From NCBI RefSeq assembly GCF_988242995.1, contig NZ_OZ547043.1: a stretch of DNA of 64,000 nt, one strand, 5' to 3'. This document shows, piece after piece, positions 11,010 through 42,615 of this stretch (positions within the stretch are counted from its first letter, which is position 1; each line of letters opens with the position of its first letter). The notes under the pieces are model-generated. The model saw nothing but the letters and a program-made list of their open reading frames with translations, did no database searches and had not been told where the DNA came from. The translations under genes and the position numbers were made by a program.

Positions 11010-12779
11010 ACCGACTCCTGATTCAAATGTATGATGGTATTCATTGAACAGAACAATGGATCCCCCACCGTTGCTGACCGCAAAACATTTACGCGATTAA
11101 TACTGCGCGTAATATAATTAAAAATCCAGCATTCTCAATCCATTACGAAATAAGATGGCATTACGGAATAGCCAGACTTTCTCGTGTTAACGTCCGACAA
11201 AATGCGTCATTGACAGCGGTTTCTGTGGATTGACACATTTCATTCAGATAATGAATTAATGCTACTGCCGGACCAACCAGCAAACGGGCATTGTGTTCTG
11301 AAATCCAGGCTATTGATTCAACGTCAGCGACAGATCTGCGCTGTAAAAGAACTTGTAAAACAACGCAATAGAATTATCCGGAATGGTGGCGACTATGCAC
11401 TAGAACACCACAATTTCGCTCTCTCGGTAAGGCACTGTCACAGCATTCAACAGAATGTGACTTGCCAGATTTATTAGCGCCACCAGATGTTTAACCGGGT
11501 AACCACGACCCAGTCGGGGATATATTCCATCTTCTCGCTGACATCATCAAGAATAAAAAGGTTTATCACACTCAGAGCAACGTTCTTCAGCAGGCGGGAT
11601 AATTCTTCAACATTTAGAAGATGTGTTATTAAAGGCATACAAACTGGACGTATTGTATTTTCTTTTGGTGGTTGACCTAAGGTAGCAGTTTATCCTGATG
11701 CGCTGAGATTTCTGTAATATCTACGTCAACATTCTCCTCGAATAGAAAATGCAGCCCCGGCAAGTGATTCACATTTTTTAACAAAACGTTGTTAGCGTGC
11801 CATTTTCAGAAGCTCTCCAAGAAAGCGAATTCTTTTCTCAAATTCTGCATTCTCAGACACAGCTTTCTACTCCATGGCAATGGCCCAAATACGAAGTTGC
11901 TCAGGATCATTAGTGGTGCTGAGAAGTTAAATAACCATGCGGAGTACCACTCGTCATCACGTATTTATATATCATGAAGCTATTGTTGTGTTTTGTACAT
12001 CAGTAGATGTATTCTGATATACTCCTTTTGCTAGACATAACCTTTCACCTGCTTGCAAAGCTTCTGTGTTCTGACATTGCCAAATTGTTGCAATTCTGTA
12101 TCCAGCCTTCTTTCAGTCATAGCTTCGGGCCGCGATAAGACTCACTGATCTGACCCTGATTCCTCTTGCAGACTTTATAGACCAATTAAAATGCAGTTTC
12201 TGCAGGTCAACGTCTGACCATCATTGTCATCACTCTGGCCATTAGAGTAACCTTCTGCATTCATCCTTTTGTAAAAAGTTTATAGACTGGCCCCCTGAAT
12301 CTCCAGACAACCAATATCACTTAAATAAGTGATAGTCCTGATACAAGTTTTTAGAGTAGTCATTAGTGAACAGATAATTGTTAACTTAGAACCAGTAAAA
12401 TGCAAACGACGCACCACGCTGGGAAAATCGCTGCTATTCAGCAGAGTTTTGTACCGAGAATTGTGGCCAGCCACTTATTGCTCTCGCGTAAGCAGGTATC
12501 CCCATCGTTTACCAGTCCAGCACATCTTGTGGTCAGGCAGAAGAAGAGCAAACTGTTACTGGACTCACTGCATGCATGGTGGAGAAAAATGCCACGCTAT
12601 CCAAAAATCCAGACTGGGAGAATGGTTCAGCTGTGTACTGAATCAGTGGGGCGCACTCTGTTATTACAGTGTTGACGGTCAGGCGGAGGCAGACATAATG
12701 CCGCGGAAAAAGCCCTTTGTGCCATCTGTCTCGGAAATAAAAACTCTTATGACCTTTGTCAAATATTGAGCCCAAAAAG

Positions 12780-14186
12780 ACCTTACGCAGCTCCGGGAGC
12801 TTCGTTATATCGCGGATTAAAGAACCTGAAACAGTCAGACTGTATCTTGGATTTTACAAACTCTTATTCGGGGATTTTAGCCCCATGACGATTTACGCAG
12901 TGAGCTGGCCTCTTTCTATATGCAGGTATTGGCGCATTCTGACCTCCTGAATTCTTTTACGAGGATCACTCATTCCGTGTCTGACTGCTTCAGGGTTTAA
13001 TTTTGCTTCTGCTGACTGAATGATGATTGGGCAGCAAGTGCAATATCCCACATAAATCCAGTCAACTCACGAGCCACCGCCGTAATGGCTACTTGTGATT
13101 TTTTCCCTTTTGCTGTCAGACTTCGGTAACGAGAACACAATCGTTGTTGAGCTTTCCATGCAATATCTTTGGAATATTGTGTTACAGAATCCGGTCGGTA
13201 ATATATAAGCCATGCACCAACTTTTGCAGGTGTACGATAAGACCAGGCGGCTTCGTAAAGCAGACGTCTCAGTTCGCTGTTTCCAACTTTTGTTATTCCC
13301 CTGGGACGAATGCTGTTTCCACTGGAATATTCCCCTGGAACCAGTCCCAGAAAAGCCATGAGTTGTTTGGGACTGGAAAATCGTGAAAAATCACCCAGTT
13401 CAGCAACCAGGGTTATTGCGGTTAGCTGACCAACACCTTTAAGGGCCTGTAACTGGCAGACCAGATTGCACAGAGACCACTCAGGTAACAGGCGGGATAT
13501 TTCCTGGTCGAGTTGAAGTATGCGATCTTCAATCTGCTCCAGACTCTGACAATAGTGTTGAAAAGCAATCTGTTGAGATGGCTGACTAAATGATTGATTG
13601 GCTAACCAGGTTCGATGTTTGCCGGTCCAGTGCTTCCCTGCATAACGTTTGTCTGTTCGCAATAGCATGCTCAGAATTCGCTGTCGGGCAACTCTGCTGT
13701 CTCGTTTAGCTGCTGCACGGGCTCTGATTAGATCCCGCATAGCTTCATGAGTCAGGTCAGGGATCCAGACAGGGGTAAGTTCACCAGCCCGCAGTAACCT
13801 GGCAAGAGAAATTGCGTCCCGATGATCATTTTTGATTCTGTCTGTCGGTGATTTTGGTATCCGGGAAGGGGCAATAACCTGGCATTTTATATTCATCGCT
13901 GTGAGTTGATGATATAGCCCAAAACCACAGGGGCCAGCCTCATAGCAGGAAAGAATGTTTCCGTAAAGTCCCTGCAATTTCTGAAATAATCGACGTACAG
14001 CCTGGGCTTCGTTGTTAATCGTACCATAATAACGAACTTCGCCAAGCCGTTCAGGTGCAGCAATAGCAACCGCCAACGTTTCTTTATGTACATCCAGCCC
14101 GATGTAAGCTGCAATATTTTCCGAATGCATAATGACCTCCTCTGGAATATCCCACCAATGCTATAGTGAGTATATAAAGGTCATAC
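12780..14186 (-). mobile_element. IS110-family insertion sequence (boundaries approximate, 3' end not determinable by eye)
   Basis: Transposase 12997..14130; upstream end abuts a truncated IS66 tnpC remnant at about 14187; no terminal inverted repeats expected for this family. Confidence 0.4.
12997..14130 (-). CDS. IS110-family transposase (DEDD/RuvC-like)
   Basis: 377 aa; N-terminal YIGLDVHKETLAVAI motif typical of IS110-family transposases; RBS GAGGAGG upstream. Confidence 0.8.
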   Translation of the reverse strand: MHSENIAAYIGLDVHKETLAVAIAAPERLGEVRYYGTINNEAQAVRRLFQKLQGLYGNILSCYEAGPCGFGLYHQLTAMNIKCQVIAPSRIPKSPTDRIKNDHRDAISLARLLRAGELTPVWIPDLTHEAMRDLIRARAAAKRDSRVARQRILSMLLRTDKRYAGKHWTGKHRTWLANQSFSQPSQQIAFQHYCQSLEQIEDRILQLDQEISRLLPEWSLCNLVCQLQALKGVGQLTAITLVAELGDFSRFSSPKQLMAFLGLVPGEYSSGNSIRPRGITKVGNSELRRLLYEAAWSYRTPAKVGAWLIYYRPDSVTQYSKDIAWKAQQRLCSRYRSLTAKGKKSQVAITAVARELTGFMWDIALAAQSSFSQQKQN

Positions 14187-14189
14187 CAT

Positions 14190-14412
14190 CTTTATGTTCT
14201 TCGGCGGCGAGCGCAGTGCACTGTTGTATGGGCTTATCGGCACCTGCCGTCTGAACGACATTGATCCGGAAGCGTATCTGCGCCATATCCTGAGCGTACT
14301 GCCGGAATAACCTTCCAACCGTATTGATGAACTCCTGCCATGGAACGTAGTTCTCACCAATAAATAAGCATCAATATGATTCTCCATTAACGCTTACCTT
14401 TTCTCAGGCTAT
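14190..14412 (+). mobile_element. truncated IS66-family 3' end (tnpC C-terminal remnant plus terminal repeat), diverged
   Basis: Translates to FFGGERSALLYGLIGTCRLNDIDPEAYLRHILSVLPE and PSNRIDELLPWNVVLTNK, matching the C-terminus of TnpC at 23289..24902; ends with degenerate IS66 terminal repeat ...cgcttac. Confidence 0.6.
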
Positions 14413-14505
14413 TTTTGCTTTTTTTTGCTTTTCCCCGCCACTTTATGGTGATTATCACATCAATATACATCGATAGATATTAACGTAACTGCAGTGAGGT
14501 GAAGC

Positions 14506-15720
14506 ATGAAATTTGAACGCCATCATGAAATATTGAAACGACTCAGTAAATTCGGTTCTGTAAAAGTATCCGATCTGTCCAATAGCCTCAATGTAACGAA
14601 AGAAACTATTCGTTCAGATCTTAATGAACTTGCCAGGCTTGGCTATCTGACTCGATGTCATGGCGGTGCTTTTATCGTCCTAGACTCGCTTGATACTATT
14701 GCGAAAAATGAAATCGCTTATGCGCTTGAAAATTATGATACAGCCCAGGGAATAAAAAAAGGCCACTCAACTATGAAAAGTCAAGTATGCGTTATTGGTT
14801 CGTTTAATGTTGATATCATCAGTTATTTGCCGAGGCTTCCCACTATCGGAGAATCGCTTCTGGCAAGTAATTTTATATTTTCACCGGGGGGAAAAGACTG
14901 TAACCAGGCGCTGGCAGCAAGCTTTGCCGATACTGATGTTTATTTCATAACAAAAGTAGGTACAGATCACTTTAGTGATTATGCGATCAACTTTATGAAT
15001 TCGTCTAAGATTTATAAAAGTATAATTTATCAAACGAAAGAAACGCAAACCGAAACTGCCACGATCCTTGTTAATGAAGGTACTGGCGATAATGTTATTG
15101 CGATCTATCCCGGTGCCAACATGACAATGTCGCCCGATGAAATAACTATTCAGAAAGAAGCGATTATTAATTCTGATGTCATACTTCTGCAGCTCGAAAC
15201 AAATTATACCGCTCTGCAACAAGCGATCACATTGGCGCAAAAAAACAGTATCCCGGTCATTATTAACCCGGCACCCTATAATGATATCGTCAACGAACTT
15301 ATTCAGGATGTTGATTATATCACCCCCAATGAAACAGAAGCTGGTTTACTGTCCGGCATAGACGTACACGATCTTGAATCAGCTAAACGAGCTGCAGAAG
15401 CTATCCACAATAAAGGGGTAAAAAACACGGTTATCACGCTCGGTAGCAAGGGCTCGCTCGCATTTGATGGCAAAAAATTCATTCATTCGCCAGCGTTTCC
15501 AGCGGTCGTTAAAAATACGGCAGGAGCCGGGGATGCGTTTAACGGCTCTCTGGCATCAGGACTTGCGAAAGGAAAATCACTGGAATCAGCACTGTGTTAT
15601 GCCAGCGCCTTTGCATCCCTAGCGGTGGAGACAAGCAATGCTTCCGACATGCCTGAACATGAATCTGTGATACATCGAATTCAGAGTATACATTATCAGC
15701 AAACTATTTTTACGCATTAA
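14506..15720 (+). CDS. DeoR-type HTH domain fused to PfkB/ribokinase-family carbohydrate kinase
   Basis: 404 aa; N-terminal DeoR-like HTH (VKVSDLSNSLNVTKETIRSDLNELARLGYLTRCHGGA) then PfkB body with GAGDAF signature near C-terminus. Confidence 0.7.
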   Translation: MKFERHHEILKRLSKFGSVKVSDLSNSLNVTKETIRSDLNELARLGYLTRCHGGAFIVLDSLDTIAKNEIAYALENYDTAQGIKKGHSTMKSQVCVIGSFNVDIISYLPRLPTIGESLLASNFIFSPGGKDCNQALAASFADTDVYFITKVGTDHFSDYAINFMNSSKIYKSIIYQTKETQTETATILVNEGTGDNVIAIYPGANMTMSPDEITIQKEAIINSDVILLQLETNYTALQQAITLAQKNSIPVIINPAPYNDIVNELIQDVDYITPNETEAGLLSGIDVHDLESAKRAAEAIHNKGVKNTVITLGSKGSLAFDGKKFIHSPAFPAVVKNTAGAGDAFNGSLASGLAKGKSLESALCYASAFASLAVETSNASDMPEHESVIHRIQSIHYQQTIFTH

Positions 15721-15733
15721 GAAGGGACAGAGA

Positions 15734-16492
15734 ATGAATAACACCAAAAAATCACTAAAAGTGCTCTTTATTGGGGAATCCTGGCATATTCATATGATTC
15801 ATTCAAAAGGATATGACAGTTTTACCTCAAGTAAATATGAAGAAGGTGCGACCTGGTTACTCCAGTGTCTGAAAAATAGTCAGGTAGATGTCACCTATAT
15901 GCCAGCACATACGGTACAAATTGCCTTCCCTGAAGATGTGGCACAGTTAGAACAATATGATGCCATCGTTATTAGTGATATTGGTAGTAATACTTTCCTG
16001 CTACAAAATGATACTTTTTATCAGCTTCGCATAAAACCAAACGCTCTCGAACTGATTAAAGAATATGTGAATAACGGTGGTGGGTTATTGATGATTGGCG
16101 GCTATCTCTCATTCATGGGAATTGAAGCAAAAGCCAATTATAAAAATACAGTTCTGGCTGATGTGCTCCCGGTTACGATGTTAGATGGTGACGATCGTGT
16201 CGAAAAACCAGAGGGTGTTATTGCACAGCCATCACAACCTGAACATCCAGTTATTAAAGGGTTCTCTGAATATCCTTTTTTCCTAGGTTATAACCGGGCG
16301 ATCGCTAAAGAAAATGCTGAGGTGGTATTAACAATAAACAACGCTCCATTACTGGTCTTTGGTAACTATCACAACGGGAAAATAGCCTGCTTTATGAGTG
16401 ACTGTTCACCGCACTGGGGTACACAGCAGTTTATGTCCTGGCCGTTCTATACCGCGTTGTGGGTAAATATACTGACTCATATTGCAAGATAA
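15734..16492 (+). CDS. hypothetical protein, possibly class-I glutamine amidotransferase-like fold
   Basis: 252 aa ORF immediately downstream of the kinase gene (14-nt gap); fold assignment is pattern-based only. Confidence 0.5.
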   Translation: MNNTKKSLKVLFIGESWHIHMIHSKGYDSFTSSKYEEGATWLLQCLKNSQVDVTYMPAHTVQIAFPEDVAQLEQYDAIVISDIGSNTFLLQNDTFYQLRIKPNALELIKEYVNNGGGLLMIGGYLSFMGIEAKANYKNTVLADVLPVTMLDGDDRVEKPEGVIAQPSQPEHPVIKGFSEYPFFLGYNRAIAKENAEVVLTINNAPLLVFGNYHNGKIACFMSDCSPHWGTQQFMSWPFYTALWVNILTHIAR

Positions 16493-16548
16493 TAATAATA
16501 ATGGGGTAACTCCAGTTACTCCATTTACTATAATAGAAGGATTGATGT

Positions 16549-17514
16549 ATGAAAAAGAATAAGTACTCAACTCCCTTATGGATGCTTGCCACGATTCTTG
16601 CGGGTATGCTCTCCCCTATGCAATCAGCGGTGAATGGTCAATTAGGTCACTGGTTACAGGATGGTAATGCATGCGCAGTTATCTCCTTTGCCAGTGGTTT
16701 AGTCGTGATGTTTTTTATTATTATGGCGCGAAAAGAAACCCGGCAACAATTTGCGGCAATTCCTTCTCTGATTAAAAACCGAAAAGTTCCTCTCTGGAAC
16801 TGGTTTGCCGGTCTCTGTGGAGCGATGGTGGTATTTTCTGAAGGCGCATCAGCCAGCGCACTCGGGGTCGCAACGTTTCAAACCGCACTGATCTCCGCGC
16901 TATTGCTGTCTGGTTTACTTTGCGATCGCTTTGGTATCGGTGTCGACGAGAAAAAATACTTTACCCCTTATCGCATCATCGGTGCATTATTTGCGGTTAT
17001 TGCTACGATTTTTGTTGTGTCACCTCAGTGGCATTCTACCTCTTTCATCTTACTTGCCATTCTTCCGTTCTTAGCTGGTTTGCTTGCAGGATGGCAGCCC
17101 GCTGGAAATGCAAAAGTAGCTGAAGCTACGGGATCCATGCTGGTTTCAATCACCTAGAATTTCATCGTTGGATTTTGTGTTTTAGGCACAGCGCTAGCTA
17201 TTCGTGTCGCATTAGGGCACGTCACTGTTCAATTACCAGATGTCTGGTGGATGTATCTTGGCGGCCCGCTTGGACTAATGTCTATCGGTTTAATGGCCAT
17301 TTTGGTCAGAGGTCTGGGGTTACTGATGCTGGGGGTTGCTTCAACGGCGGGCCAGTTACTGGGATCAGTATTGATTGACGTATTAATTCCATCGCTGGGC
17401 AATAGCGTTTATCTGGTCACGATCATCGGAACACTGTTTGCACTGGTCGGTGCAATTGTTACCACTATTCCGGAATACAGAACCTCGAAAACAATGAAGA
17501 AAATGGAGGTATAA
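16549..17514 (+). pseudogene. DMT/DUF606-type membrane transporter with single in-frame amber stop (TAG at 17155..17157)
   Basis: ORFs 16549..17157 and 17251..17514 are in the same frame; only one TAG interrupts a continuous about 320-codon hydrophobic reading frame. Confidence 0.5.
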
Positions 17515-17516
17515 TC

Positions 17517-18551
17517 ATGAAAGATTATCTACAAACTGTGACGGGCCCCGTCGCCCGTGAAGATATGGGGCTAACACTTCCTCATGAACATCTGTTCAAC
17601 GATCTTTCCTCTGTTGTGGATGCTCCTTGCTATCCTTTTTCACAACGGCTTGTTGATAAAAAAGTCACGGCAGAAATCCAGTGGGCATTAAAACACGATC
17701 CTTATTGCTGCGCTGATAATATGGACCGCAAACCTATTGAAGATGTGATCTTCGAAATTAATAACTTTATCTCGCTCGGTGGTCGCACCATTGTTGATGC
17801 CACAGGGTCTGAGTCTATCGGACGAGATGCGCAGGCATTACGAGAAGTCGCATTAAAAACAGGTCTGAATATTGTTGCTTCCTCCGGTCCCTACCTGGAA
17901 AAATTTGAAAGCCAGAGAATTCATAAAACGGTTGATGAACTGGCGACAACGATCGATAAAGAATTGAATCAAGGGATTGGCGATACGGATATTCGTGCCG
18001 GAATGATCGGTGAAATAGGTGTTTCACCGACATTTACCGAAGCCGAGCATAACAGCTTGCGGGCTGCCTCGCTGGCACAGATTAACAATCCTCATGTGGC
18101 GATGAATATTCACATGCCGGGCTGGCTTCGTCGCGGTGATGAAGTACTCGACATTGTGTTAGGTGAAATGGGCGTCTCGCCAAATAAAGTCTCTCTCGCA
18201 CACTCGGATCCGTCAGGAAAAGACGTGGCGTATCAGCGGAAAATGCTTGATAAAGGTGTCTGGCTGGAATTCGACATGATTGGCCTAGACATTACCTTCC
18301 CGAAAGAGGGAATAGCGCCAGGGGTGCAGGAGACTGCCGATGCCGTCGCTCATCTCATTGAGTTGGGTTACGCCGATCAGCTTGTTCTCAGCCACGATGT
18401 CTTCCTTAAACAAATGTGGGCTAAAAATGGCGGTAATGGCTGGGGATTTGTTCCAGATGTTTTTCTGGCCTATCTGGCGGAGCGCGGCGTCGATAAAACG
18501 ATCCTCAAAAAACTCTGTATCGATAATCCCGGACGATTATTGACCGCATAA
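17517..18551 (+). CDS. phosphotriesterase-related protein (PHP/amidohydrolase family)
   Basis: 344 aa; N-terminal GLTLPHEHL metal-binding motif typical of phosphotriesterase homology proteins. Confidence 0.8.
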   Translation: MKDYLQTVTGPVAREDMGLTLPHEHLFNDLSSVVDAPCYPFSQRLVDKKVTAEIQWALKHDPYCCADNMDRKPIEDVIFEINNFISLGGRTIVDATGSESIGRDAQALREVALKTGLNIVASSGPYLEKFESQRIHKTVDELATTIDKELNQGIGDTDIRAGMIGEIGVSPTFTEAEHNSLRAASLAQINNPHVAMNIHMPGWLRRGDEVLDIVLGEMGVSPNKVSLAHSDPSGKDVAYQRKMLDKGVWLEFDMIGLDITFPKEGIAPGVQETADAVAHLIELGYADQLVLSHDVFLKQMWAKNGGNGWGFVPDVFLAYLAERGVDKTILKKLCIDNPGRLLTA

Positions 18552-18595
18552 AACCATTATCCCCCGGCACATTGCGCCGGGGGATGTCAATTAAT

Positions 18596-18957
18596 ACCCC
18601 GCCGTTAAATCATCCACCAAGCGCGAGTCGGATGCGCCGTACAACTCACCATCCGACCCAACCATAATGCTTTGCGTGCTGCCCATCGCCTCATTCAGCG
18701 CCACTTTCTGACCTTTTGCATCCAGCAGCTTGAGCGTATCCGGACTAAACCCTTTTCAACACGCAGCTCGTCCGGCAACCACTGATAGTGGAAACGAGGC
18801 GCATTGGTCGCTTCGGCAACATTCATTCCACAATTGATGCTGTTCACCACCATTTGCAGCACGGTAGTGATGATCCAGCTACCGGTAACAAAGTGAGTAC
18901 ATAAAGGCCATACTGTCACGAACAGTGCAAAAGTGGCTCTTCCGCAACCTGGGTGAA
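18596..18957 (-). pseudogene. 3' remnant of a gamma-glutamyltranspeptidase gene
   Basis: Minus-strand translation gives ...NAPRFHYQWLPDELRVEKG and, after a frameshift, GFSPDTLKLLDAKGQKVALNEAMGSTQSIMVGSDGELYGASDSR, a GGT C-terminus. Confidence 0.6.
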
Positions 18958-20600
18958 GATTTTCATGCCAGTGGACTCATTACCCTCCGCCTAAGTAGTT
19001 CAAGTCCGGCTCGACCATACATCTGGCGTATCAGCACCTTCAGGCGATTTACATGACCTTCGACAACACCAGTACTCCAGCGACTGCTGATTGCCTCACA
19101 TATAGCCGCAGCATCAGCTTCCATCCCCGCAGCTACGCACCGAAGTTCTGCTGAGCCGCTTTCGTGGACCCGAGTGAACCAGCTGCTTAGCTGTGATTTA
19201 TTTTAGGTTTTCAGAATACGGTAGAACTCGAGTACCAGTTGCTGCGCTATTTTCAACTCCGGTTCTTTTTCACACATCAGACTAATAAATCGGAAAGCAT
19301 AATTTTCTTCACCCCTGATTATTCTCCAGGGCATCAACCAGCGGCTTACCCGGGACACTGAAGGAAGTCTTGCGGCAGTAGTAACCGGTGGGATCCAGCC
19401 TTTACGCCATTTGGCAACAGCATCCCTGACGATGGTTTCACTGCCTGTAACCCCCCTGGCCACCATTTCCCGCCATATCCGGCCGGAGTTATAATTACCA
19501 CATTCTCGTTGCTCTTTTAACCACTCCCTCCATGGGTCCAGAAGCCCTCGCTTTGGAGGCCTAGTTGACATTTCAGGGAATGTTCCTGAACCCACCCAGC
19601 GACTGACTGTCACTCGCGACAGGCCTGTAATACGGGATATTTCCCTGAAACTACATCCCTTGTTATGCAGGGCCATAACCTCTGTCCAACGCTGATGCCG
19701 TTTTTTGCGGATGTGCTGTTTAAGGCGTTCCAGACGACGGAGCGATGCTACAGGCACAGATATTTCTGGCTCAGGTGATTTCTTCAGTGATAACTCTCTG
19801 ACAACAAGACGTATCAGAGGCATATGTCTGTACATCATTCGTTCAGGCTCATCACCAATATTTTTTAGCAGGTGCCATCGATCGGCCACCTGTCTGGCCT
19901 GAGGTGCACCTTCACGTGCTGCTGTCGCATAGACTCCACTGCGATCACGCGAGACAACCTGTATTTCCGGATATTTTCTGAACCAGGTCGCCAGCGTACG
20001 CTGATCACGGCCGGGAAGCAGGACGAGGGGACGGTGAGTATCAAGATTGACTATTAACATACCGCAGCAGTGGCCCCGATGCCACGCCCACTCATCAATA
20101 CCGACATGAGGCGCGCCTGACTGTTTCGTCTCCGGGGTATTGATAACCCTGCGAAGAAGAGTATCAGCACTGCAACGGAGACCCGCTGCCGTTGCAGCCC
20201 GTTTTCCAGCCTCACCTCCAGCTATTAATCCCAGTTGACGTTGTAAATTTTGTAACGCCTGTGAAGACTGCTGGTGTGAACCGGCGAAGGGAGCAAGCGA
20301 CTCGGCAAAAATTTTACGTGAACAAGCCGGGTTACGGCAGTACCAGTGGCGGACGGAAAATACAAGCCATAGCGTCTGCCCTGAGCAGGGTAGATGCTGT
20401 ATCCGGCGCCGACGACAACTATGAACAGAGTCGCTACGCTTAAAGCATTCAGGACATTGTGCTGTTTTGCGTTTTCCGTGGAGATGGAGGGTTATACCGT
20501 CAGAGCTAATAATTTGTCGACTGCATCGCCATCCGCAAGGTAACTGTAGAAGTGTCTTAAGAGAGTGCATTGCGTTGCCCATAACTTAAAACAGCTTAGA
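18958..20600 (-). mobile_element. ISL3-family element with disrupted transposase (boundaries approximate)
   Basis: Transposase reading frame broken near 19200; no terminal repeats identified by eye. Confidence 0.4.
19203..20582 (-). CDS. ISL3-family-like transposase (N-terminal and central part)
   Basis: 459-aa ORF with Cys-rich zinc-finger region, GIDEWAWHRGH...LIVNLDTHRPLVLL DDE-like core and VADRWHLLKN; the conserved ISL3 C-terminal motif (STGVVEGHVNRLKVLIRQMYGRAGLELLRRRV) lies in another frame at 18960..19200. Confidence 0.55.
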   Translation of the reverse strand: MGNAMHSLKTLLQLPCGWRCSRQIISSDGITLHLHGKRKTAQCPECFKRSDSVHSCRRRRIQHLPCSGQTLWLVFSVRHWYCRNPACSRKIFAESLAPFAGSHQQSSQALQNLQRQLGLIAGGEAGKRAATAAGLRCSADTLLRRVINTPETKQSGAPHVGIDEWAWHRGHCCGMLIVNLDTHRPLVLLPGRDQRTLATWFRKYPEIQVVSRDRSGVYATAAREGAPQARQVADRWHLLKNIGDEPERMMYRHMPLIRLVVRELSLKKSPEPEISVPVASLRRLERLKQHIRKKRHQRWTEVMALHNKGCSFREISRITGLSRVTVSRWVGSGTFPEMSTRPPKRGLLDPWREWLKEQRECGNYNSGRIWREMVARGVTGSETIVRDAVAKWRKGWIPPVTTAARLPSVSRVSRWLMPWRIIRGEENYAFRFISLMCEKEPELKIAQQLVLEFYRILKT

Positions 20601-20865
20601 TCCTTGTTCGCCAGAAAGTTTCATCCATTTTCTTCCACCCAGGTTGCGGAAGAACCACTTTTCATCCGTCGTTGACAGATGTGAAGTATGCGGGAGAAAA
20701 AGTGAATATCTAACTGTAATAACTCAGACCGGTACGAGTACTCGGAACGTCTACAATCATTCAGGGCAAAGTGCTAAAATTTCTCTATCCCGGGATGCCC
20801 CTACCAACGCAGCACTCCCGGAGATATCATTACAGCTCTGCAACTGATTTCCGCGACTGAACCGC

Positions 20866-21276
20866 TCAGTTCCTATCCTTCCAGTTGCCTTCCTGCAGCC
20901 CCCCCTCCCTGCTGTATACCCCGGTACCACAACGCGGGCAGCACTTTTCTCCTTCATAATCTTCGTCACACATCACACAAAACCACTTTCTCACCTTCAC
21001 CGTATAATCCGGAACCGTCATACCCTGCAGATGCAAACGACGGGCCTCTTTCTCTGCCGGGTCAAGCCAGGTGCATCGCAGCAGGATTTTCTCAGCGACA
21101 GTCATCTGGTCATGTTCAAACCACGGTGGTTGTCCGTCATTGCCCCGCTGAAGTGTTAACGGGCATCCACAGGACACACAGCACAAAACGTCCTGGCGGT
21201 TGTGCTTCGCTGCTTCTTTCGCCGTAACAAAATGGCCTTTGCTGTCATTCGCCATATAACAGTTCAGAATTCGCAT
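20866..21276 (-). CDS. Cys-rich zinc-ribbon protein (paralog 2)
   Basis: Start at MRILNCYMANDSKGH preceded by AGGAGG; CxxC...PWFEH...CxxC...CxxC pattern shared with upstream gene. Confidence 0.5.
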   Translation of the reverse strand: MRILNCYMANDSKGHFVTAKEAAKHNRQDVLCCVSCGCPLTLQRGNDGQPPWFEHDQMTVAEKILLRCTWLDPAEKEARRLHLQGMTVPDYTVKVRKWFCVMCDEDYEGEKCCPRCGTGVYSREGGLQEGNWKDRN

Positions 21277-21671
21277 ATTTCCTCCTGAGTTGTCCGGGGA
21301 ATACTGAATCCTCCGGTCTGGCAGTGTGTGCAGTACCGCTCCCCATAATAATCGTGGTGACATTGTCTGCAGTGCCAGCTGGCTTTACGCACCACGGGTA
21401 AGGCATCCGGTACGAATTGCTGCAGACGTTTAATCAACTGTATTTCTCTGCGCTCCGGCCTGACATAAGGGCACTGTTGACCGTGCTCTGTCAGCCTGTC
21501 GTCAGTGTGTTCAAACCAGGGAAGTTCAGTGTCGTATTGCGGATGGTATCTGAGTGCACTGCCACACAAGTGGCAGGTGTAGTTAGCATAAGGTGCGGCC
21601 TGTGCAGTACGGGCGCCCGTCAGACGTCCGTTGCCATCAAGAGCGATAAAGGATTTTGCGTACATAGTCAT
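21264..21671 (-). CDS. Cys-rich zinc-ribbon protein (paralog 1)
   Basis: 135 aa; CHLCGSAL...PWFEH...CRQCHHDYYGERYCTHCQTG; overlaps the downstream paralog by 13 nt. Confidence 0.5.
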   Translation of the reverse strand: MTMYAKSFIALDGNGRLTGARTAQAAPYANYTCHLCGSALRYHPQYDTELPWFEHTDDRLTEHGQQCPYVRPERREIQLIKRLQQFVPDALPVVRKASWHCRQCHHDYYGERYCTHCQTGGFSIPRTTQEEICEF

Positions 21672-21924
21672 ATTCCTCAGCCGCCAGACGACACGCAGGC
21701 AACAGCCGTCCCGGTACGGGCAGCGTGGTCAGGGTGTGAATGGCGGTTCAGTTAAAATCTGGACTGGAGTTTGGGTAAAGCAGGCTGGTTGCTGTTACAG
21801 CACTGTGGTTGTCACACAATGGAACACTGACGTAAAAAACAGTCAGTGGGCGAGTGGATACATCGTTGCCGCCAGACAACAACCCATACTTTTGGTTTGC
21901 CGGATATTGGCGCGCCAGTCGTGC

Positions 21925-22494
21925 TCAACTCCGGCTACAGCCAAAATTGCGCTCACCGGTGCAGTGAGCTTTGGTATGTTCCTTCGCCAGATAGTCAGCA
22001 CGTTCCAGCACCTGCTGAAAGCCAGTGTCATCATCGCGTTCCAGCCACACCGCCGGCCAGGCCGGAAAATGCACCAGCGTGGCATGGCACCCGACATCCA
22101 CTCCCAGGGCACTGCACCACGCCTGTTTAATCATCCCGGCCAGTGATCCCGGAGCACGGTAATCACCGGCACGACACCAGGTATCCCGGTTAACCAGCAG
22201 CATCAGGTGATAGTGTTTTTTACCTTTGCACTCCCCAAACTCCCGGGCCCAGACGTAATGCAGGGTGGTGGGATGCACGCGTTTACCTTCCCGATGCTTA
22301 CGTTTCTGGTAAGCGTCGATTCGGGCTTTCAGGGCATTGATGAAGCGGGATATCACAGCTGCGTCCGTTGCTGCCGGTACATCCGGGAAACGCAGGTCAA
22401 CCCGCAATGCCGTCAGGCGGGGATGAACATTCAGTGCGTGCCGCACCGTCTCACGAATACGTTGCTGCCAGAAGGGGTTGTATTTGTAGGTCAT
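21925..22494 (-). CDS. YfjJ/YagK-like (inovirus Gp2-type) prophage protein
   Basis: Start at MTYKYNPFWQQRIRETV with GGAG RBS; resembles YagK/YfjJ family of CP4-type prophages (recognition from memory). Confidence 0.55.
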   Translation of the reverse strand: MTYKYNPFWQQRIRETVRHALNVHPRLTALRVDLRFPDVPAATDAAVISRFINALKARIDAYQKRKHREGKRVHPTTLHYVWAREFGECKGKKHYHLMLLVNRDTWCRAGDYRAPGSLAGMIKQAWCSALGVDVGCHATLVHFPAWPAVWLERDDDTGFQQVLERADYLAKEHTKAHCTGERNFGCSRS

Positions 22495-22690
22495 GGTTAA
22501 ATCTCCGTATGGTTCATACGGAATAGCCACGTCGTAAAAAATGCGCAGAGTCCCTGAAGTGACCTCCGGCAGGACACTGTCTCAGGCACTCTGTGATAAC
22601 CCGAACGGTCGTCTCCGGACTGACGGTTGAATTTTCAGCGTTGTTTTTTTAATGTAAAAAACCGGTTACGGGTAAGGCTGTGAGGAGGGA

Positions 22691-41359: not shown

Positions 41360-41839
41360 ATGAAAACCGTTTCTCAGAATACCCCCACAATTTATTCAGC
41401 TACAACACCAGAGAATAATCCGCCTCAGTTGGTTGCCAGCCTCGTCCCTGATGAACAGCGCATCAGCTTCTGGCCGCAGCATTTTGGCCTCATTCCACAG
41501 TGGGTGACCCTGGAGCCCCGTGTCTTCGGCTGGATGGACCGTCTGTGCGAAGACTACTGCGGTGGTATCTGGAATCTGTACACCCTGAACAACGGCGGGG
41601 CATTTATGGCACCCGAACCGGATGACGATGATGACGAAACATGGGTACTGTTCAATGCCATGAACGGTAACCGCGCAGAAATGAGCCCGGAAGCCGCCGG
41701 TATTGCCGCCTGTCTGATGACGTACAGTCATCATGCCTGTCGTACGGAGAATTATGCCATGACGGTCCATTATTACCGGTTGCGGGATTACGCCCTGCAG
41801 CATCCGGAATGCAGCGCCATTATGCGCATCATCGACTGA
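41360..41839 (+). CDS. antirestriction protein (KlcA/ArdB-like, YfjX/YeeR-position)
   Basis: 159 aa with acidic stretch PEPDDDDDETW; RBS AAGGAG. Confidence 0.7.
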   Translation: MKTVSQNTPTIYSATTPENNPPQLVASLVPDEQRISFWPQHFGLIPQWVTLEPRVFGWMDRLCEDYCGGIWNLYTLNNGGAFMAPEPDDDDDETWVLFNAMNGNRAEMSPEAAGIAACLMTYSHHACRTENYAMTVHYYRLRDYALQHPECSAIMRIID

Positions 41840-41854
41840 ATGGAGAGAAGCACA

Positions 41855-42331
41855 ATGCAACAACTTTCCTTTCTGCCCGGAGAGATGACGCCCGGCGAGC
41901 GCAGCCTCATTCAGCGGGCCCTGAAAACCCTGGACCGCCATCTTCATGAACCCGGCGTGGCCTTCACCTCCACCCGTGCAGCACGGGAATGGCTGATTCT
42001 GAACATGGCGGGACTGGAGCGTGAAGAATTCCGGGTGCTGTATCTGAACAACCAGAATCAGCTGATTGCCGGTGAAACCCTCTTCACCGGCACCATCAAC
42101 CGCACGGAAGTCCATCCCCGGGAAGTGATTAAACGCGCCCTGTACCACAATGCCGCTGCCGTGGTACTGGCACACAATCACCCGTCCGGTGAAGTCACAC
42201 CCAGTAAGGCAGACCGGCTTATCACCGAACGTCTGGTACAGGCACTGGGCCTGGTGGATATCCGGGTGCCGGACCATCTGATAGTCGGTGGCAACCAGGT
42301 TTTCTCCTTTGCCGAACATGGTCTGCTTTAA
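41855..42331 (+). CDS. yeeS: RadC-like JAB-domain protein
   Basis: Start at MQQLSFL with GGAGAG RBS; JAMM motif HNHPSGEVTPSKAD. Confidence 0.8.
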   Translation: MQQLSFLPGEMTPGERSLIQRALKTLDRHLHEPGVAFTSTRAAREWLILNMAGLEREEFRVLYLNNQNQLIAGETLFTGTINRTEVHPREVIKRALYHNAAAVVLAHNHPSGEVTPSKADRLITERLVQALGLVDIRVPDHLIVGGNQVFSFAEHGLL

Positions 42332-42393
42332 CCCTTCACAACCACATCACACCTGTTTTCACTTTTATCTTCTGTCTTCAGAGGTATCCCATT

Positions 42394-42615
42394 ATGAAAA
42401 TTATCACCCGTGGTGAAGCCATGCGTATTCACCAACAACATCCGACATCCCGTCTTTTTCCGTTCTGTACCGGTAAATACCGCTGGCACGGCAGTGCTGA
42501 AGCGTATACCGGTCGTGAAGTGCAGGATATTCCCGGTGTGCTGGCCGTGTTTGCTGAACGCCGTAAGGACAGTTTTGGTCCGTATGTCCGGCTGATGAGC
42601 GTCACCCTGAACTGA
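42394..42615 (+). CDS. yeeT: DUF987 protein YeeT
   Basis: 73 aa MKIITRGEAMRIHQQHPTSRLFPFCTGKYRWHG... Confidence 0.75.
   Translation: MKIITRGEAMRIHQQHPTSRLFPFCTGKYRWHGSAEAYTGREVQDIPGVLAVFAERRKDSFGPYVRLMSVTLN

Follow-up and report, generated by a model that had tools for sequence, protein, structure and literature searches.

The 64,000 nucleotides (nt) of Escherichia coli DNA considered here, called the window throughout (NCBI RefSeq assembly GCF_988242995.1, contig NZ_OZ547043.1; positions are counted from its first letter), carry at 14506-18551 a cluster of four genes, all read from the plus strand and parted by gaps of 13, 56 and 2 nt. The first gene (14506-15720) encodes a protein of 404 residues in which Pfam recognises a DeoR-type helix-turn-helix (HTH) domain (HTH_DeoR, residues 5-56, E 2.6e-15) followed by a PfkB sugar kinase domain (residues 92-382, E 1.3e-63); this kinase is already named rikA by PGAP in some E. 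coli genomes carrying the cluster. The second gene (15734-16492) encodes a PF07090 (GATase1_like) protein of 252 residues (Pfam E 1e-111), the third (16549-17514) a transporter of the DMT/YdcZ type whose two repeats are matched by Pfam in both halves, and the fourth (17517-18551) a binuclear-metal hydrolase of 344 residues belonging to the phosphotriesterase (PTE) family of the amidohydrolase superfamily (Pfam E 7.5e-47). The transporter frame is interrupted by an in-frame TAG at 17155-17157 and is called a pseudogene with an internal stop by PGAP, so that the locus consists of three intact genes and one broken by a nonsense codon. An earlier note, made from the letters of this DNA, had described four same-strand genes with short gaps at exactly these coordinates, lying between insertion sequence (IS) remnants and missing from this position in K-12, and all of this is borne out by the list of open reading frames, by Pfam and by the flanking DNA.

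Judged from its sequence, the cluster is the E. coli orthologue of the rikA module STM3547-STM3550 of Salmonella. In Salmonella LT2 the same genes follow one another on one strand in identical order (rikA, PF07090 gene, DMT gene, PTE gene), and both an upstream cis element and a tail of the ggt gene are common to the two loci. With Salmonella RikA the window kinase shares 80-82% identity over 100% of the length as well as the 404-residue architecture, the PF07090 protein is about 83% identical to its orthologue STM3548, and the hydrolase is orthologous to STM3550 as well as to Pmi1525 of Proteus mirabilis. According to McCormick, Jabbar and Escalante-Semerena (Mol Microbiol, June 2026; PMC13432705), STM3547 is a ribose kinase, RikA, with a 90-residue DeoR-type N-terminal extension, and Citrobacter, Escherichia, Budvicia and Proteus share the arrangement rikA-STM3548-STM3549-STM3550. 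Given the orthology to this published cluster, the name assigned by PGAP and the crystal structures of STM3548 and Pmi1525, the cluster is already known in substance, and the novelty implied by the earlier note falls away.

A single colinear block (14411-18884, its end falling at 18874-18884), 76% identical in nucleotide sequence to Salmonella and Citrobacter, extends from 95 nt upstream of the rikA start to a point about 330 nt into ggt. The Salmonella cluster is core-chromosomal, placed between yhhY and a full-length, convergent ggt, whereas the E. coli copy is bounded by IS elements beside cobU and retains only a stub of this gamma-glutamyltransferase gene, a 3' fragment of 293 nt (18591-18883, minus strand; PGAP) at the position matching the full Salmonella ggt. 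Because the block reaches into ggt, the stub can be regarded as the relic of a donor locus with the Salmonella/Citrobacter arrangement, severed by an ISL3-family element. Most of the cluster has a G+C content of 0.39-0.47, lower than the roughly 0.52 of cobU and of the DNA downstream, and in K-12 MG1655, where cobU is neighboured by IS5, yoeG/yoeH and CP4-44, no trace of the cluster was found beside cobU and blastn gave no match. On these two grounds the cluster is taken to be accessory and to have been acquired horizontally as one block of 4.5 kb including the 3' end of the donor ggt; IS elements would then have trapped the block at the edge of a CP4-44-type island beside cobU. A megablast search against 5,426 complete E. 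coli genomes found at least 80% of the segment in 1,908 of them (about a third). No listed full-length copy falls below 99% identity, and in many other genomes all that is left is the last 950 bp with the ggt stub. The same four genes occur amid unrelated flanks in Budvicia and Providencia, which indicates that the module is self-contained.

The left boundary is formed by remnants of an IS66-family transposase (12526-12744 and 14203-14310; Pfam, PGAP), split about 375 nt upstream of rikA by an intact ISEc45 of the IS110 family (transposase 12997-14130, minus strand); this insertion is recent, since in strains PC-NDM34 and Ecol_542 the IS66 remnant is unsplit and ISEc45 is missing. On the right, a terminator scan found a terminator-like, G+C-rich hairpin with a 12-bp stem (18559-18585) between the convergent hydrolase gene and ggt fragment. 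The ISL3-family element that truncates ggt follows (18913-20678, minus strand; Pfam), framed by inverted repeats of 43 nt (18913-18955 and 20636-20678) and containing a transposase pseudogene (18963-20582; 'internal stop' in PGAP). An Rfam scan of 14100-19000 at E<=1 returned no matches, and hence no known riboswitch or leader. The gap of 56 nt before the transporter gene (16493-16548) holds a run of TAA repeats and the short inverted repeat GTAACTCCAGTTAC; BioCyc reportedly predicts two Salmonella operons divided at the gap preceding the transporter gene, and the scan gave no support for a promoter or terminator within 16493-16548. The remainder of the island (20866-22530 and about 22500-43000) is CP4-44-like and contains genes for two zinc-ribbon proteins, an inovirus Gp2-family protein, IS66 copies, a GTPase, dynamin, RdcB-family proteins, DUF932, an antirestriction fragment and cbeA/cbtA, followed by tmaR-yeeA and the his operon. 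Strain CEA601S, otherwise near-identical, has a frameshifted cbtA and lacks counterparts of two segments of about 0.8-0.9 kb each (37970-38868 and 41673-42467).

The HTH-kinase fusion and its upstream element

In rikA the DeoR-type HTH occupies codons 1-57 (14506-14676) and is joined by a linker (14677-14772) to the PfkB ribokinase domain, which starts at Met90 (14773). The N-terminal part scores above the cutoff of PF08220 (HTH_DeoR) and has AgaR as its best match among the NCBIfam regulator models; Pfam found no DeoRC sensor/oligomerisation domain, the C-terminal part being the PfkB kinase. Among the top 120 homologues, almost all that are full-length carry PF08220, to as little as 44% identity, and 14 HTH residues are invariant across homologues. 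The ratio of non-synonymous to synonymous substitution rates (dN/dS) for codons 1-57 is 0.05-0.18 in the pairs whose synonymous sites are unsaturated, comparable to the kinase domain, and between Proteus mirabilis and P. penneri it amounts to 0.064 for the HTH and 0.057 for the kinase domain. Moreover, a Shine-Dalgarno sequence for Met1 (GAGGT, 14496-14500, plus strand) lies shortly upstream of the first ATG in every orthologue with the same gene arrangement (type A, below) and in every genus examined, and no stop or frameshift occurs in the N-terminal 89 codons in 19 species. The earlier note had proposed that a DeoR-like HTH is fused here to a ribokinase-family kinase with a GAGDAF motif, leaving it to the homologues to tell a conserved fusion from a misannotated pair of separate genes. 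By Pfam, selection and the Shine-Dalgarno sequence the fusion is genuine; it is kept in essentially all full-length homologues to 44% identity and is under purifying selection. In the clusters of Bacillales the kinase is unfused and the regulator slot is taken by a separate LacI gene.

The work on Salmonella points to a different start. There, a C-terminally tagged product of about 35 kDa was observed, consistent with initiation at Met90, RikA(90-404) was fully active and sufficient for growth on ribose, and the authors concluded that RikA 'appears to begin at Met90' (PMC13432705). These results weigh against a role for the N-terminal domain and, together with a purine-rich AAAAAGG that precedes the Met90 ATG by 10-11 nt in the group of E. 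coli, Salmonella, Citrobacter, Budvicia and Klebsiella, speak for an artefact or vestige, in which the real product would start at Met90 and the first 89 codons would not be functionally translated. Such a vestige is hard to reconcile with the low dN/dS of the HTH and its saturated synonymous sites, with 14 residues held invariant, with the GAGGT before Met1 in all genera examined or with 89 codons free of stops and frameshifts, and in Proteus position 90 is GCA (Ala), which makes an internal Met90 start impossible; we regard it as very improbable. The 35-kDa species could derive from proteolysis in the linker or represent a second isoform. Two isoforms are possible in the organisms that carry AAAAAGG before Met90, and a Met90-initiated, kinase-only isoform might modulate the full-length repressor. 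What the evolutionary evidence says is that the N-terminal domain would be made and used despite the published start.

Enzymes of this kind have precedents. BirA, NadR and PutA are bifunctional enzyme-repressors in which an N-terminal DNA-binding domain is fused to a metabolite-binding enzyme, and YeiI of K-12, to whose type of NCBIfam model the window kinase was matched, is an HTH-PfkB protein. RikA differs from these in that its HTH is of the DeoR type and the usual C-terminal sensor of DeoR proteins is replaced by the kinase, DNA binding by RikA being only proposed; it also differs from the RbsK/RbsR pair, where the regulator RbsR is a separate protein of the LacI family.

A candidate target for the HTH is found directly upstream of the gene, where the regions of 12 species can be aligned only in one bipartite block. 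Its first half is the T-rich element TTTTTGCTTTTTTTTGCTTT (14412-14431, plus strand), with two TTTTTG units 10 nt apart, which is near-invariant in the 12-species alignment, unique in the window (0.05 chance matches expected) and coincident with the left edge of the homology with Salmonella and Citrobacter. The second half, TTTATGGTGATTATCACA (14442-14459, plus strand), holds the palindrome GTGATTATCAC at 14448-14458, and its ATCACA and TATG are invariant or near-invariant across genera. A regular expression for the bipartite element gave 17 matches in 3.66 Mb of fetched DNA (both strands), and all 17 sit 48-52 nt before the start codon of an HTH-PfkB gene, with none elsewhere; each gene of this kind that was tested has the element at this distance. 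The element also precedes paralogous HTH-PfkB genes with different downstream genes, for instance a nucleoside hydrolase and NupC in a Salmonella locus (L008) and DHDPS/DUF386 in Rahnella (L011). The HTH-PfkB gene is the sole gene common to the element-bearing loci, and for this reason an autoregulatory operator with a promoter is the simplest reading, the TTTATGGTGATTATCACA region being a candidate operator that overlaps a putative promoter. T-rich repeat operators are known for AgaR, a protein of the DeoR family. Two points tell against this: the regular expression was built from the same sequences later counted, so that the counts are circular as to sensitivity and informative as to specificity, and the element could be a promoter or UP element rather than an operator. 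A scan with the sigma-70 consensus found nothing at the conserved element and 8 matches against 9.9 expected, that is, the chance level, and no -35/-10 assignment is therefore claimed.

The PF07090 protein, the hydrolase and cluster architectures

The PF07090 protein matches its family over the full length above the gathering score, and matches the STM3548 structure (2GK3) at E 7e-145. Outside its own family, its nearest structural neighbours are ThuA-like, followed by the GATase1-like domains of glycoside hydrolases, and the protein has a ThuA-like fold. The label 'GATase1-like' in the earlier note, taken in the sense of a true glutamine amidotransferase, is supported neither by Pfam nor by these neighbours. 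The E. coli protein is 59-66% identical to those of Bacillales; about 70 columns are invariant, among them H20, H23, K25, D28, E36, E37, Y124, E131, K133, D154, R155, D223, C224 and H227. No functional study of PF07090/DUF1355, STM3548, STM3550 or STM1381 was found in literature searches.

The hydrolase aligns end to end with Proteus mirabilis Pmi1525 (3RHG/4QSF; E 3.4e-174), whose gene lies within the same four-gene cluster (L025). Its metal-ligand motifs (PHEHL at residue 22, GEIGVS at 165, NIHMPG at 197, LAHSD at 227 and LSHDV at 291) preserve the HxH/E/H/H/D pattern intact, in common with Pmi1525, Rsp3690 (3K2G) and animal PTER (9EFA). PTER hydrolyses N-acetyltaurine, and the closest characterised relatives of the hydrolase cleave unphosphorylated esters and N-acetyl amides. 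Assignment as OPH (NF041153; 83 bits against a cutoff of 500) or as Php (NF007373; 108 against 486) was rejected on these NCBIfam scores.

The surroundings of PF07090 genes were surveyed with one genome per species, the best 80 of 241 stretches being classified by their same-strand genes within 9 kb. A PfkB kinase is found at 69 of these 80 loci and a hydrolase at 76 (PTE at 32, M20 at 44, alpha/beta at 4, with both PTE and M20 at four loci). The transporters are a sugar-type ABC importer at about 49 loci, a DMT protein at 25 and an APC permease at 4; as for the regulator, an HTH is fused to the kinase at 24 loci, all of Enterobacterales, and a separate LacI gene accompanies an unfused kinase at 46, in Bacillales. 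Several architectures can be distinguished. Type A, found in 19 enterobacterial species, is that of the window (HTH-PfkB, PF07090, DMT, PTE), and type B, in pathogenicity island 2 (SPI-2) of Salmonella and Citrobacter, where the literature speaks of orf408 and orf245, combines HTH-PfkB and PF07090 with an alpha/beta hydrolase and an amino-acid permease. Two types belong to Bacillales: type C (LacI, PfkB, PF07090, M20, ABC, BtpA, PfkB, M20) and type D (LacI, PfkB, PF07090, ABC, PTE), the PTE of the latter being 36-41% identical to the E. coli hydrolase. Finally, 23 loci from Paenibacillaceae and related groups are Bacillales-like, with a ureidoglycolate-lyase-family gene (PF04115) directly upstream of M20-PF07090 (Paenibacillaceae, Cohnella, Halalkalibacter; e.g. 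L064 8017-8526), which may point to a substrate with a ureido or carbamoyl group.

The SPI-2 cluster, known as 'orf408-orf245' and found through its PF07090 paralogue, lies between ttrA and pykF in Salmonella (L012 6763-11055) and occurs in four species of the survey. It likewise encodes an HTH_DeoR-PfkB protein (408 aa) and a PF07090 protein (STM1381, PDB 3SOZ), in the order kinase, PF07090, hydrolase, transporter on the same strand, and differs in having an alpha/beta hydrolase in place of the PTE and an APC permease in place of the DMT protein, both non-homologous replacements. Compared with the window, its kinase is about 47-51% identical and its PF07090 protein about 65%. Another Salmonella paralogue of the kinase, P0037, is 59% identical and was at first a candidate for orf408; it was rejected as such on account of its plasmid-like context with a nucleoside hydrolase. 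Its locus (L008 8001-14123, with ccdAB and a resolvase) continues from the HTH-PfkB gene to an inosine-uridine nucleoside hydrolase, a NupC-type transporter, an MFS transporter and an M20 peptidase, and the bipartite element lies 50 nt before the start. In a metagenome-assembled genome of Succinivibrio (L050 10769-12784), DMT_YdcZ and PTE form a single frame of 671 residues beside PF07090; an AraC-type regulator gene is divergently oriented there, and the adjacent genes include no kinase. In three related loci of Succinivibrionaceae DMT and PTE are separate genes, for which reason the fused frame, which may reflect loss of a stop codon or an assembly error, is given little weight.

Proposed function of the intact module

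On balance we think it probable that the intact module is a self-regulated salvage or catabolic module for a ribose-containing conjugate, decaying in this strain. The YdcZ-type DMT protein would import the conjugate, the PTE-family hydrolase and the ThuA-like PF07090 protein would remove an ester-, amide- or ureide-linked moiety, and RikA would phosphorylate the freed D-ribose to ribose-5-phosphate. Full-length RikA would be enzyme and regulator at once: its DeoR-type HTH would bind the bipartite element, which lies 48 nt ahead of the rikA start, and repression would be lifted once the kinase domain binds sugar. The data establish the identity, orthology and synteny of the cluster, its allele states with their frequencies, purifying selection on the HTH and conservation of the cis element; ribose kinase activity is established in the literature for the Salmonella enzyme. 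By contrast, which way the transporter works, in what order the steps run, what the conjugate is, whether the HTH binds DNA and whether this allele has lost its function are matters of inference. For the conjugate, our best guess, offered with low confidence, is a ribosyl compound linked through an amide or ureide.

The sequence of import, hydrolysis and phosphorylation of a ribose conjugate is suggested by four lines of evidence: the conserved ribokinase positions, the affinity for ribose, the paralogue linked to a nucleoside hydrolase and the hydrolase relatives that act on esters and N-acetyl amides. The window kinase has in common with E. coli RbsK the PfkB fold, the positions of the signature motifs and the catalytic Asp; its C-terminal PfkB motif (TAGAGDAF) is intact with D343 (codon at 15532-15534, plus strand), and the positions aligned to the ribose-binding residues of RbsK are kept. 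The Km of RikA for ribose is 2.0 mM, similar to that of RbsK, chromosomal rikA alone supports growth on ribose, and D343 is essential (PMC13432705). Catabolic import finds support in the Bacillales, where PF07090 genes stand beside binding-protein-dependent ABC importers of the sugar type, together with a PfkB kinase and M20 or PTE hydrolases.

Several points weigh against this proposal. The substrate is conjectural, the earlier note having left the substrate of its catabolic or salvage pathway without a name; DNA binding by the HTH is a prediction; and Pmi1525 and Rsp3690 reportedly show their activity in vitro only, on artificial or model esters and methylphosphonates. RikA itself has a kcat/Km for ribose some 50-fold lower than RbsK, and the authors favour the view that ribose phosphorylation may be an off-target or moonlighting activity (PMC13432705). 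If so, the kinase would phosphorylate either the imported conjugate or an intermediate resembling ribose, for instance a sugar lactone or a glycated amine, and the PTE-family and PF07090 proteins would act afterwards on the phosphorylated compound, a logic known from the frl/fra Amadori pathways and from the phospho-sugar lactonases of the PTE family. The bit scores of the kinase agree with this, as it stays under the cutoff of the TIGR02152 ribokinase equivalog (276.3 bits against 299.65) and reaches 246.6 bits against 341 for PRK11142. So does the occurrence of HTH-PfkB relatives in non-ribose contexts, such as the Rahnella locus with its DHDPS-family lyase and DUF386, and some members of the PTE family are phospho-furanose lactonases (NF045706). 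The hydrolase of the window, however, was rejected as such a lactonase (42 bits against a cutoff of 630), its closest characterised relatives act on unphosphorylated substrates, the Km for ribose equals that of RbsK, and the conserved ribose-binding positions would seem to leave no obvious room for a substituent. Moreover, Succinivibrionaceae keep PF07090, DMT and PTE with the kinase displaced or absent. On this evidence an off-target role of ribose is rather unlikely.

The transporter bears on a further alternative, since Pfam labels YdcZ a 'putative inner membrane exporter', a label that also counts against import of the conjugate. The cluster might then be a device for detoxification and export, the PTE-family enzyme cleaving xenobiotic esters or organophosphonates and YdcZ exporting the products, as would suit Pmi1525 and Rsp3690, said to be methylphosphonate and carboxylate esterases. 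Against this stand the constant link to a sugar kinase, the ABC importers and LacI-type sugar regulators that accompany PF07090 in Firmicutes, and the APC-family permease used by the SPI-2 paralogue; we give detoxification very little credence. The salvage of a ribose conjugate therefore remains the reading that we prefer for the intact module. A broader and more speculative extension of it, which we put forward tentatively and hold to be doubtful, is that PF07090 represents a new kind of enzyme rather than an amidotransferase. Its partners would be a PfkB kinase, a transporter and a hydrolase that may be PTE, M20 or alpha/beta, and the whole would form a hitherto unrecognised cross-phylum pathway for ribosyl amides or ureides, in which enterobacterial RikA would be a kinase-repressor acting through the bipartite operator.

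Probable decay in this strain and meaning of the findings

The TAG in the transporter gene is codon 203 (W203*) and parts the two recognisable PF04657 (DMT_YdcZ) repeats; other E. coli alleles have the gene intact. Among the complete E. coli genomes searched, codon 203 is TAG in 599 records and TGG in 1,429, the counts being taken from identity bands. Recoding of the TAG, by readthrough or by a non-standard amino acid, was considered and rejected because the codon is TGG (Trp) in those 1,429 other E. coli records, from which the TAG is a plain nonsense transition. With respect to the common E. coli allele, the window kinase carries the changes G131D, G183E, S210P and A348S. The first two (codons 14896-14898 and 15052-15054, plus strand) are lineage-specific and affect positions that are glycine in 28 of 28 other aligned homologues, down to 44% identity. 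The N-terminal sugar motif, which has G131 as its final glycine, reads GGKD in the window against GGKG in all those homologues and in RbsK; G131 aligns with RbsK G44, beside K43 and N46. G131D and G183E are predicted to be damaging, a point on which the case for decay is open to challenge, as it is prediction only. In the comparison with Salmonella LT2, W203*, G131D and G183E belong to the window allele alone.

The exact 55-mer with G183E is present in 111 of the 5,426 genomes and that with G131D in 5, these counts giving the window's allele only, and PC-NDM34 has an intermediate haplotype with TAG, E183 and G131. The allele counts are consistent with a stepwise decay after loss of the transporter, W203* being followed by G183E and G131D, the nesting being not proven. 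Other E. coli strains are independently damaged, with a kinase frameshift in strain N63 (L005) and Q81* in strain B19 (L006), and the kinase is truncated in Providencia stuartii (L022, 352 codons) and in P. alcalifaciens (L026, 171 codons), where the hydrolase is disrupted too.

From these features the module is probably decaying, or defunct, in this strain. The putative operon of the earlier note stands as a gene layout and fails as a working operon, given the nonsense codon of the transporter and the two kinase substitutions. The cluster might still be functional here if the N-terminal fragment of the transporter or another permease sufficed and D131 and E183 were tolerated. The fragment of 202 residues holds one complete YdcZ repeat and might keep some function, which is a point against decay, and single-repeat YdcZ proteins of about 150 residues exist; three of the four genes are intact, and the TAG allele persists in 599 genomes. 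With both glycines invariant in 28 homologues and G131 in the sugar-binding motif, with counts that fall from 599 to 111 and then to 5 genomes and suggest accumulating damage, and with independent frameshift and nonsense alleles in other strains, continued function appears improbable, and decay is the reading retained.

From the point of view of annotation, the locus is ordinary: a widespread and already named accessory cluster of E. coli, decaying in this strain. What is new here is the evidence that the fusion is real and under purifying selection, the bipartite element that precedes it, and the ThuA-like PF07090 protein travelling with a PfkB kinase, a hydrolase and a transporter across phyla. 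The four-gene module spans Salmonella (twice, once in SPI-2), Citrobacter, Proteus, Providencia and about a third of E. coli genomes. The evidence from selection and from the cis element argues that the published Met90 start is incomplete and that full-length RikA would be a DNA-binding kinase. The comparative data, for their part, narrow the search for the substrate to ribose conjugates in which an amide, ester or ureide can be hydrolysed, and they mark the PF07090 protein as that core component of the module which is conserved and lacks an explanation.

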